This document shows positions 17,120-32,381 of a DNA stretch of 34,765 nt, in pieces; the stretch's first letter is position 1, and each line of letters opens with the position of its first letter. Below the pieces are notes generated by a model. The model made no database searches and was not told where the DNA came from. It was given only the letters and a program-made list of their open reading frames with translations. The DNA is taken from sequence record SRR31156797_39060, one strand, 5' to 3'. Both the position numbers and the translations under genes were made by a program.

Positions 17120-18016
17120 TTAAGCCGTTTTTATTTCAGAACTGAATTTTTTTGATTCCCATTGGGTGATAAACGCCACGGACAACACGATGATAGCCGC
17201 GCCTAGCCATAAACGTCCGGGTGGCGCCCAACCAAACACGACCCAGCCGGCCAGGACGTTCAGTGGCAACTTTGCATGATCAAAAGGTTGTACGAAAGAC
17301 GCATCCGCTATCGAATACGCTTTGACAATAGACCACTGAGCGAGTGCTGTCATAGCACCAGCGGCGATGAGTAATAGCCACAATGTGCCTCCAACCGGAG
17401 TTTGCCAGTCTGGTACAGCGAGCAATAGGTTAAATGGAGTAATAAGCAGGAGTAAATACACAACCATAGTGGAAGGGCTATCGACAGAAGAGAGACGCTT
17501 AACCATCAATGAGTAACAGGCCCAGAAAAAGGCGGCACCGACGGGAAGTAGTGTTGCCCAACTGAAGTCTTCAGACCAAGGCTCTAAAATGATCATCGCA
17601 CCGATAAAGCCAGTGAGCGTCGCTCCCCACCGTGCTTTTCCGACGTTCTCTTTGAGGAATAACCCAGAGCCGACGGTGGCAAACAGTGGTGAGGTCATTA
17701 GTAATGCAATGCCTTGCCAAATCGGCACTGGATACGCCAGTGCCCATAACCACAGTTGAATACCAATCACCGCCAGGAAAACACGAAATACATGCCAGCC
17801 AAAATACTGAGTGCTTAACGACCGACGTATGCCCAGAGTTTTGAGATAAGGCATGATCACCACAATGGCGATGGCGTATTGGATCAGTGCGACGGTGGTC
17901 GAGTTGAGGCCAAAACGAATAGTGGCAATTTGGGTAACACTGTTAACAACGGCAAAAGCAAGACCTGCTGTTAACATCCAAAATGCACCTTGAATAGGTT
18001 GGTGTTTTCCACTCAT
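17120..18016 (-). CDS. ribN: DMT/EamA family transporter, RibN-like riboflavin transporter
   Basis: About 10 TM segments; ADASFVQPFDHAKLPLNV motif; adjacent glutaredoxin as recalled for V. cholerae ribN. Confidence 0.7.
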   Translation of the reverse strand: MSGKHQPIQGAFWMLTAGLAFAVVNSVTQIATIRFGLNSTTVALIQYAIAIVVIMPYLKTLGIRRSLSTQYFGWHVFRVFLAVIGIQLWLWALAYPVPIWQGIALLMTSPLFATVGSGLFLKENVGKARWGATLTGFIGAMIILEPWSEDFSWATLLPVGAAFFWACYSLMVKRLSSVDSPSTMVVYLLLLITPFNLLLAVPDWQTPVGGTLWLLLIAAGAMTALAQWSIVKAYSIADASFVQPFDHAKLPLNVLAGWVVFGWAPPGRLWLGAAIIVLSVAFITQWESKKFSSEIKTA

Positions 18017-18154
18017 ATTGATACTTAGATAAGAAAATAGTTGCGTTAAATAATACGTGCTTATTGAGTGGAAACCAATTGCGAATAGTTGTTTAAATCA
18101 TTCAATAGTTTCGACGACTAAAATGATGTTGGAGCGGACAAGTGAAATTGAGGC

Positions 18155-18253
18155 AAAAAAAAAGACCTTCATAAAGAAGGTCGAAGAACATGAAGTGACC
18201 AGTGATTTCTGCCTTATCACTGAAAAGAAGCACAAACGCTGCCTGCATTTGTA
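18155..18253 (-). ncRNA. Candidate sigma54-dependent small RNA (~99 nt)
   Basis: Starts ~12 nt after a -24/-12 promoter; two hairpins plus terminator GACCTTC-tttat-GAAGGTC-T9; no credible RBS and ORF inside. Confidence 0.7.
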
Positions 18254-18263
18254 CTTAATATAT

Positions 18264-18381
18264 TGCAGCAAGTGTGCCAACTTTTAATATTGTTACATTT
18301 CAATATGTTAAGATGTTTTTGTGTTTTCTTGCACTTGAATTACGTGCATCTTATTGGAGCATCACGCTGTGATCTGGTGCA
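18264..18381 (-). promoter_or_regulatory. sigma54 promoter with IHF site and two NtrC-like enhancer sites
   Basis: TTGGCACACTTGCTGCA (18280-18264); TTTCAATATGTTA (18298-18310); TGCATCTTATTGGAGCA (18345-18361); CGCTGTGATCTGGTGCA (18365-18381). Confidence 0.75.
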
Positions 18382-18409
18382 AAAAAATAGGCCAGATAGA
18401 AATCTGGCC
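18381..18409 (-). terminator. Intrinsic terminator ~180 nt downstream of ohr
   Basis: Minus strand GGCCAGAT-ttct-ATCTGGCC-TATTTTTTT. Confidence 0.85.
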
Positions 18410-18586
18410 AAAAGGATTTACACTGGGAGTATAAACAAAAGTCGTTAAGTGAGTGTGGACAAACGTCTCTTTGTTGCCCCACCGAGATGACGTGATGTAG
18501 ATTATGTGGGTCATATTACGGTTTTATGGCGACTTGTTTACATTTGTATTTATGCTCCACTTTATAATTAAGCTTGATGGGCTTAA

Positions 18587-19012
18587 TTAAGCGATTTTGA
18601 CACCATTCGCTGTTACCGAAACGTCAATGTTGCCGCGTGTTGCGTTTGAGTAAGGGCATACCTGATGTGCTACTTTTACTAGCTCTACCGCTTGTTCTTC
18701 AGTTAGTTCTAACTGGGCATCTAAGCTTACTGTTAACGCAAAACCGCCCGCTTCGTTTGGACCTATCCCCACTTCAGCTGTTACTGGAGCAGATTTCAGT
18801 GCCACCTTGGCTTCACGAGCAACGTGAAGAATTGCGTTAGAAAAACACGCTGAATAACCAGCAGCAAAAAGCTGTTCAGGGTTCGTGGCCGTACCGTTGC
18901 CACCCATCTCTTTAGGGTAGCTTAAATCAACCGATAGTAGACCATCGTCAGTTGCGACTTTGCCGTTACGACCTGCTAGTGCTGTTGCTTTAGTGGTATA
19001 GATAGTTGCCAT
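18587..19012 (-). CDS. ohrA: Organic hydroperoxide resistance protein
   Basis: TNPEQLFAAGYSACF and AHQVCPYSNATRGN motifs. Confidence 0.97.
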   Translation of the reverse strand: MATIYTTKATALAGRNGKVATDDGLLSVDLSYPKEMGGNGTATNPEQLFAAGYSACFSNAILHVAREAKVALKSAPVTAEVGIGPNEAGGFALTVSLDAQLELTEEQAVELVKVAHQVCPYSNATRGNIDVSVTANGVKIA

Positions 19013-19032
19013 AGTATTCACCTTTAATTTAA

Positions 19033-32140: not shown

Positions 32141-32261
32141 TTGCAAAATGCACTAAATTCGCAAAATGCAATTCACTTATGAGATTGGTTGTAATGAAAC
32201 CGCCTATTTTGCACGCAAATAAGCCATTTTTTGCCCGAATAAAGTTGGCACGCTACCTGCA
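32141..32261 (+). promoter_or_regulatory. LuxO-binding sites and sigma54 promoter of qrr
   Basis: TTGCAAAATGCAC (32141) and TCGCAAAATGCAA (32159) match TTGCA-W3-TGCAA; TTGGCACGCTACCTGCA at 32245-32261. Confidence 0.92.
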
Positions 32262-32271
32262 TTATTAAAAG

Positions 32272-32381
32272 TGATCCTTTTAAGCCAAAGGATCACCTAG
32301 CCAACTGACGTTGTTAGTGAATTAATTTTTGTTCACACATATCTATAGCCAATCACCTATTTTGTGATTGGCTTTTTTTTT
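32272..32381 (+). ncRNA. qrr: Qrr quorum regulatory sRNA (paralog number uncertain, possibly Qrr3)
   Basis: Conserved core TCACCTAGCCAACTGACGTTGTTAGTGAA; terminator AGCCAATCAC..GTGATTGGCT-T run; sigma54 and LuxO promoter. Confidence 0.97.

Follow-up and report, generated by a model that had tools for sequence, protein, structure and literature searches.

The interval between ohrA and ribN in the DNA record SRR31156797_39060 raises a simple question: what, if anything, is transcribed from it, and under whose control? A first-pass annotation of this 34,765-nt stretch of DNA (as a whole referred to here as the window) had proposed that the interval harbors a small RNA driven by sigma54, NtrC and IHF. 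The comparative analysis described below indicates that a genuine sigma54-promoted small RNA gene is very probably present, as judged from its sequence and that of its relatives. In its full form, the proposal is that of an NtrC/sigma54-driven, Hfq-type base-pairing RNA of about 99 nt, independently transcribed, a reading that we consider moderately probable.

Following the minus strand from ohrA towards ribN, the interval contains in order a terminator, two 17-bp dyads, an IHF-like site, a sigma54-type promoter and the RNA of about 99 nt (Table 1). Promoter, start point, dyads, IHF-like site and U9 tract were all recovered exactly where the first-pass annotation had placed them. The two ends of the RNA derive from the promoter geometry on one side and from the terminator on the other.

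Table 1. Coordinates of genes and predicted elements in the window
Feature	Position	Strand	Sequence or remark
ohrA	18587-19021		OsmC family
Enhancer site A	18365-18381	(-)	TGCACCAGATCACAGCG; start -128; TGCACCA left half perfect, right half degenerate
Enhancer site B	18345-18361	(-)	TGCTCCAATAAGATGCA; start -108, 20 bp past site A; 2 mismatches to TGCACC-N5-GGTGCA
IHF-like site	18298-18310	(+)	TTTCAATATGTTA, 1 mismatch to WATCAANNNNTTR; -57 to -45, between enhancer and promoter
Sigma54 -24/-12 promoter (predicted)	18264-18279	(-)	TGGCACACTTGCTGCA
Small RNA, about 99 nt (predicted)	18155-18253	(-)	predicted +1 through U9
Stem-loop 1	18232-18252	(-)	nt 2-22: ACAAAUGC-AGGCA-GCGUUUGU
Linker 1	18223-18231	(-)	GCUUCUUUU, nt 23-31; candidate seed
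Stem-loop 2	18200-18222	(-)	CAGUGAU-AAGGCAGAA-AUCACUG
Linker 2	18183-18199	(-)	GUCACUUCAUGUUCUUC; U-rich, precedes the terminator
Rho-independent terminator	18155-18182	(-)	7-bp GC-rich stem with 5-nt loop (18182-18164), then U9 (18163-18155)
ribN	17120-18016	(-)	EamA family; riboflavin transporter gene
Qrr gene (RF00378)	32246-32381	(+)	sigma54 promoter TGGCACGCTACCTGCA; LuxO-like sites at -131 and -113; model match 32272-32381, 99.1 bits

The promoter is found within TTGGCACACTTGCTGCA, at 18280-18264 of the minus strand, with GG at 18278/18277 and GC at 18266/18265. Placed at -24 and -12, these two elements show the exact 12-bp spacing of a sigma54 promoter of the TGGCAC-N5-TTGCW type, from which the +1 is predicted at about 18253. 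Taken by itself such a motif is not rare: the pattern, with at most one mismatch, is matched three times in the window against 1.87 matches expected by chance, one of the two other matches being the promoter of the window's Qrr gene. It is its conservation that raises this locus above chance. The RNA is represented by 33 distinct copies, that is, the window and 32 related copies (31 loci, one of which carries a tandem pair), and TGGCA[CT]-N6-TGC is retained at the same place in all 32 related copies while its spacer and flanks drift. Moreover, sequence conservation across the 33 copies sets in at the predicted +1. The two dyads fall in the region, about 80-150 bp upstream, where the site of an activator is expected, and their position and spacing are kept in 27 of the 33 copies.

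The transcript itself is predicted to fold with -33.3 kcal/mol (z -3.74), a value reached by none of 200 shuffled sequences, and the window RNA scores 113.5 bits against the covariance model R1. Column, pairing and covariation counts were obtained from an alignment of 30 sequences, A1. In it, the three-helix structure has 94.5% of its cells paired, against 38-47% in slid registers; compensatory changes occur at nine pairs, and none of 500 shuffles reaches any of five measures. The covariation resides in the second and third helices. Specifically, both-side changes are found at five of the seven pairs of stem-loop 2, whose cells are paired at 95.3% and whose loop GGCAG is nearly invariant, and at four of the seven terminator pairs. 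Stem-loop 1, for its part, has 100% of its cells paired and no variation at seven of its eight pairs, so that it is uninformative as to structure and points instead to selection on the sequence. The search through relatives suggested at the outset, for a conserved promoter, a conserved seed and stem covariation, found promoter and covariation as well as an invariant candidate seed among the Vibrio copies, and the U9 terminator foreseen some 99 nt after the +1 is conserved together with the structure.

The same alignment allows the putative pairing regions to be weighed. Columns C3-C9 and G11-C27 are invariant, an extent that includes both arms of stem-loop 1 and the adjoining GCUUC. The first-pass annotation had singled out the two pyrimidine-rich linkers as seeds: linker 1 remains a candidate, its GCUUC (G23 C24 T25 T26 C27) being invariant in 30 of 30 sequences, while linker 2 fares less well, its UUCAUGUU being kept in 23 of 30. 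In addition, the most conserved part of the molecule is stem-loop 1, to which that annotation had not drawn attention. Linker 1 and the 3' arm of stem-loop 1 together would form the candidate seed, and linker 2 might serve as an Hfq site or as a second seed. As in Hfq-type small RNAs, a 7-bp stem followed by U9 is preceded by a U-rich linker, UUCAUGUUCUU, kept in 23 of 30 sequences. In V. campbellii-type copies, stem-loop 2 and linker 2 are swapped for another sequence and hairpin, and the 5' domain is kept.

A conserved coding function was ruled out. The sole open reading frame starting inside the RNA (18248-18102, 48 aa) reads through the terminator, and 1-nt indels break its frame in relatives: column 11 of the alignment has such an indel in 7 of 30, column 33 in 6 of 30. 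These indels, lying in loops, reject a small protein or conserved reading frame and bear out the view that no translatable gene lies inside.

The RNA is followed at 138 nt by ribN, on the same strand, and this order recurs in many loci. Such an arrangement could be that of a ribN leader with an attenuator, in which sigma54 would drive ribN by terminator read-through. The comparison of loci speaks against it: in ten of them the gene past the terminator is convergent and encodes a 116-aa protein of unknown function, in two loci ribN is missing and a glutaredoxin gene comes next, and many species without the RNA have a porin gene followed directly by ribN at a distance of about 160 nt. It follows that the RNA is no leader of ribN. 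Its terminator, ending in U9, is a strong one, and we regard read-through control of ribN as highly improbable. With promoter, start, structure and terminator conserved across the 33 copies, and with the ten convergent loci, the RNA is independent of its downstream gene, as expected of the small RNA first proposed.

What would activate this promoter? The NtrC consensus of E. coli is TGCACC-N5-GGTGCA, and a LuxO site is TTGCA-N3-TGCAA. The two NtrC-like 17-bp sites that had been described are indeed centered at about -120 and -100; site A, with its perfect left half, has four mismatches to this consensus and site B has two. Of the 33 enhancers, window included, 27 contain an exact copy of the heptamer TGCACCA or of its complement, and in 27 copies a distance of 19-21 bp separates the two best dyads. 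The best site deviates from the E. coli consensus by two mismatches in 10 copies, three in 4, four in 16 and five in 3; in shuffled sequences, a best site with at most three mismatches has a probability of 0.017. The IHF-like site anticipated at about -45 to -57 was likewise found, and 22 of the 33 copies have a match with at most one mismatch, where 0.13 would be expected per shuffled sequence; in 19 of these 22 its position is fixed (-57/-56 in reverse or -44 in forward orientation). A third inverted repeat, TGCAC-N9-GTGCA at 18330-18348 (-), overlaps the right half of site B and is kept solely in the closest relative (L001).

The textbook NtrC target, glnA, was inspected in four carrier genomes (G001-G004). 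In each of them a sigma54 promoter precedes glnA, and its enhancer consists of half-good sites of the TGCACCA/TGGTGCA type; G001 and G002 show the heptamer TGCACCA without mismatch. The half-good sites of G001 are 21 bp apart, a periodicity of 20-21 bp being common to the glnA and RNA enhancers, and the distance from TGCACCA to TGGCA is 92 nt at glnA of this genome, compared with 95 nt for the RNA in the window. Just two to three matches per genome were obtained with the composite pattern TGCACCA-N80-110-TGGCAY-N7-GC; these include the RNA in four of four genomes and glnA in two of four, glnA of G003 and G004 having no exact match. Five matches remain, of which four fall inside genes and the fifth is a sigma54 promoter between genes, at the end of a contig. 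This last one (L124, in V. plantisponsor, G002 contig 39, 56-166) reads TTGGCACTTCACTTGCC, with TGCACCA about 90 nt upstream.

The Qrr gene of the window provides an internal control. Its promoter has two LuxO-like sites with at most two mismatches, each matched on both strands, and no NtrC-like site, whereas the promoter of the RNA shows the reverse, with no LuxO-like site at that threshold upstream. This bears on the idea that the RNA could be a divergent, LuxO-controlled Qrr-type quorum-sensing RNA, as might be suspected from the shared class of sigma54 promoter, the similar size and the presence of a true Qrr 14 kb away. Even with E values up to 10 allowed, the Qrr model (gathering score 50 bits) finds nothing in 17950-18650; it recognizes the true Qrr clearly (Table 1), and of all the alternatives considered this one is the hardest to credit.

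Because of the glnA-like half-site, periodicity and distance, and since it is the Qrr promoter that carries LuxO sites, NtrC appears as the likely activator. The first-pass proposal of NtrC is thus supported by a likeness of motifs, which is not proof. The activator might instead be another enhancer-binding protein whose site resembles that of NtrC and which responds to a non-nitrogen signal, perhaps one linked to the porin described below. In favor of this are the degeneracy of the dyads against the E. coli consensus, the best site having at least four mismatches in 19 of the 33 copies, and the conserved linkage to a porin gene (23 loci, 24 of 33 copies). To our knowledge porins are not classical Ntr genes, and vibrios possess several sigma54 activators with unknown binding sites. 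On the other hand, heptamer, periodicity and promoter distance match the glnA enhancer in G001 and G002, and the sites of LuxO, the sole alternative that could be checked, are absent. We hold such a different activator to be rather unlikely.

The porin gene just mentioned, ending in ...RYDF, is located directly upstream of the RNA in these loci (L039, L065, L086-L111 and L130). The identity of the linked porins to two reference porins, from V. anguillarum and V. campbellii, goes down to 37-49%, and such low values suggest an old linkage of porin and RNA. The porin has been lost in the window, as it has in its five closest relatives. A conserved piece resembling the 3' end of the porin gene, with its own terminator, is left there between ohrA and the enhancer; a porin pseudogene remnant was sought in the window by tblastn and none was found. 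In the window, the piece corresponds to an orphan element of about 100-160 nt at 18382-18540 (-), with the terminator stem at 18409-18390. Its core (AUACUCCC ... UCCUUUUGGCC hairpin, U tail) matches the 3' UTR of the porin gene in V. anguillarum and in other loci; its fold has a z of -3.49, and it gives a weak SorY-like Rfam match (24.4 versus 111 bits). The orphan element may be a relic of the 3' UTR of the lost porin, or else a 3' UTR-derived small RNA that has outlived its gene. In another locus (L090, G380 contig 134), ohrA is mostly deleted and its first codons almost abut the enhancer of the RNA.

Targets were searched for with methods that are crude and cover few genes. A 15-mer anti-seed, allowing two mismatches, was run against four genomes and V. 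campbellii chromosome 2, and its match counts were about those of a reversed-pattern control. None of the 11 best matches is at a start region; eight lie within same-strand coding frames, two opposite a coding frame and one outside long frames, and seven of the eight in-frame matches encode ..EEAQ..-like peptides. Pairing with the 5' region of the linked porin in 11 loci gave z values from -1.9 to +0.4, with long, loop-ridden duplexes that are not meaningful. In a windowed search of 14 porin start regions from three genomes, 13 were inside the range of 12 shuffles and all were within about 1.5 SD. As for expression, four RNA-seq runs from four studies yielded, for the V. anguillarum orthologue, assembled contigs of 6-29 kb that span porin, RNA and ribN and are uninformative about a discrete RNA, its ends or its level. 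Two side observations concern porin leaders. The 5' UTR of the linked porin contains GAAGC, complementary to the invariant GCUUC, a stretch of 5-6 bp from which no claim is drawn. Furthermore, in one porin paralogue each of G004, G003 and G001 (L145, L155 and L157) the ribosome-binding region is AAAGGCAGTGGAT, in which the AAGGCAG of the stem-loop 2 loop recurs; the two are identical, not complementary, and chance is a possible explanation.

A possibility is that the RNA does not pair with mRNAs, and that it binds a protein or sponges another RNA through its GGCAG loops and stem-loop 1. In favor of this are the invariance of both arms of stem-loop 1, U-G pair included, which exceeds any structural need, the occurrence of AGGCAG in both hairpin loops, and the loop-identical, non-complementary AAGGCAGUGGAU at the ribosome-binding site of one porin paralogue in each of three genomes, to which may be added that the target hunts yielded no mRNA target. 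Such an invariant hairpin might just as well serve as a protein-binding site. Those hunts were crude and limited to few genes, though; in copies of the V. campbellii type nothing is left of stem-loop 2 with its GGCAG loop, another sequence standing in its place, and a U-rich linker together with a long U tail is the build of Hfq-dependent pairing RNAs. A protein-binding or sponging role is accordingly judged improbable, and base-pairing remains the preferred mode of action.

The distribution of the RNA was first approached from a starting set of 80 ribN loci, in five of which it lies upstream of ribN; in V. proteolyticus it lies 1.3 kb away. Nearest to the window come a Vibrio sp. MAG, whose RibN is 98% identical, V. 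plantisponsor and Vibrio sp. Y2-5. By BLAST, 162 of 401 sampled Vibrionaceae genomes have a match at E<=0.01, mostly a short one to the promoter or the terminator only, and about 50 of the 401 have a match at E<=1e-8 covering the 5' domain, a patchy distribution over a minority of Vibrio species. Carriers include V. anguillarum, V. aestuarianus, V. proteolyticus, V. plantisponsor and V. campbellii; chromosome 2 of V. campbellii LJC015, filed as a plasmid in PLSDB, has one copy (63.2 bits). When 401 genomes sampled across the order were searched, no more than two real matches emerged, and both belong to the Vibrionaceae set. A tandem pair is found in one genome (L094, 1503-1600 and 1726-1821), the second copy having its own enhancer and promoter, which start right after the first terminator. 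In fifteen named species in all, two relatives of V. cholerae among them, the RNA was not detected: it was not found in V. mimicus, V. metoecus, A. fischeri ES114, V. coralliilyticus and V. splendidus, nor did BLAST find it in V. brasiliensis, V. nereis, V. europaeus, V. ichthyoenteri, V. tubiashii, V. aquaticus, V. galatheae, V. atypicus, V. rhodolitus and A. finisterrensis. Non-detection is here a BLAST result, the covariance-model search of five named genomes having scored 150 of about 1,600-2,200 first-look candidates.

With respect to known families, no Rfam 15 family matches the RNA at gathering score, and Qrr is the sole such match in the window. The best sub-threshold matches, namely JA04 (24.6 of 81 bits), RyhB (24 of 55) and RprA (23.9 of 70), owe their scores to the shape of the terminator. 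Qrr RNAs are the closest in kind: they too are independent genes of Vibrionaceae, about 100 nt long, and combine a sigma54 promoter and an enhancer located at about -100 to -130 with several hairpins and a terminator. Qrr genes exist in multiple copies, and the present RNA is duplicated in tandem in one genome. They differ in that no similarity of sequence or model is detectable, in having LuxO sites where the RNA has NtrC-like dyads, and in that the RNA has a scattered occurrence, with about 50 carriers among 401 genomes at E<=1e-8. In E. coli, micF adjoins ompC, and the present RNA is comparable as a small RNA gene kept beside a porin gene over a long evolutionary distance; unlike micF, it lies downstream of the porin, in the same direction and with a sigma54-type promoter, and no pairing with a porin start region stood out.

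Two further RNAs are related to the proposal through nitrogen. NrsZ is longer, repetitive and processed, whereas the Vibrio RNA is a single unit of about 99 nt that no Rfam family matches at gathering score, NrsZ included if it is in the library. The proposed logic, induction of a small RNA by NtrB/C and sigma54 under nitrogen limitation, would be the same: NrsZ of Pseudomonas is reported to be a nitrogen-regulated small RNA dependent on NtrC and sigma54 (PMC4253122). GlnZ of enterobacteria would likewise share with the Vibrio RNA a nitrogen-limitation response tied to the NtrC regulon, but it is reported to come from the glnA 3' UTR (PMC9731577) and is cut from the glnA mRNA, whereas the Vibrio RNA has its own promoter and is far from glnA, which is on another contig in G001-G004. 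Within the portion of the literature covered, sigma54 dependence is described for no vibrio small RNAs other than the Qrr RNAs and FlaX, which derives from flagellin, and no NtrC- or nitrogen-controlled small RNA of Vibrio was found. The main text of a 2023 review of V. cholerae small RNAs (PMC10335731) contains neither NtrC nor sigma54, RpoN appearing in its reference list only. Similarly, the main text of a 2026 V. parahaemolyticus transcriptome preprint (10.64898/2026.08.28.747715) names sigma54 for flagellar genes only and makes no mention of NtrC, RpoN or nitrogen; its supplementary tables may list an orthologue under a VPnc number. The suggestion that this is an unnamed RNA has thus held, given the lack of an Rfam match and, in the sources covered, of a paper describing it. 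As far as we can tell, it represents a new and apparently undescribed family within a known class of small RNAs.

Putting these elements together, a working model can be outlined. RNA polymerase with sigma54 would occupy the -24/-12 promoter, and an NtrC-type enhancer-binding protein, seated on the two dyads about 100-128 bp upstream, would activate it, with an IHF-induced bend joining enhancer and promoter. Given this architecture, the gene is expected to be off in nitrogen-rich growth and to be switched on under nitrogen limitation, presumably alongside glnA. The transcript would present in order the invariant 5' stem-loop, the pyrimidine linker, the covarying stem-loop 2, the U-rich linker and the terminator with its long U tail. 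Such a build is that of Hfq-dependent, trans-acting RNAs, and would imply Hfq binding and base-pairing; the invariant nucleotides 3-27 would be the likely contact with target mRNAs.

A broader reading, which we put forward tentatively and hold to be possible rather than probable, is that the RNA is the founding member of an undescribed Vibrionaceae family of nitrogen-stress small RNAs, attached to a porin and reshaping outer-membrane permeability or central metabolism, a Vibrio counterpart of both NrsZ and GlnZ. It would then have been missed because searches of two relatives of V. cholerae did not reveal it and because its promoter would be silent in rich media. The patchy distribution of the gene and its tight porin linkage make it a useful case of small RNA gene gain, loss and carriage, and the architecture of the promoter translates into a clear, testable regulatory prediction. 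Moreover, the invariant 5' domain of 27 nt points to a strongly conserved partner. Carriers comprise the fish and shellfish pathogens V. anguillarum, V. aestuarianus and V. campbellii, as well as the nitrogen-fixing V. plantisponsor group. If true, the proposal would add to the Vibrionaceae a nitrogen-responsive small RNA, of a kind for which no description was found in the portion of the literature covered.
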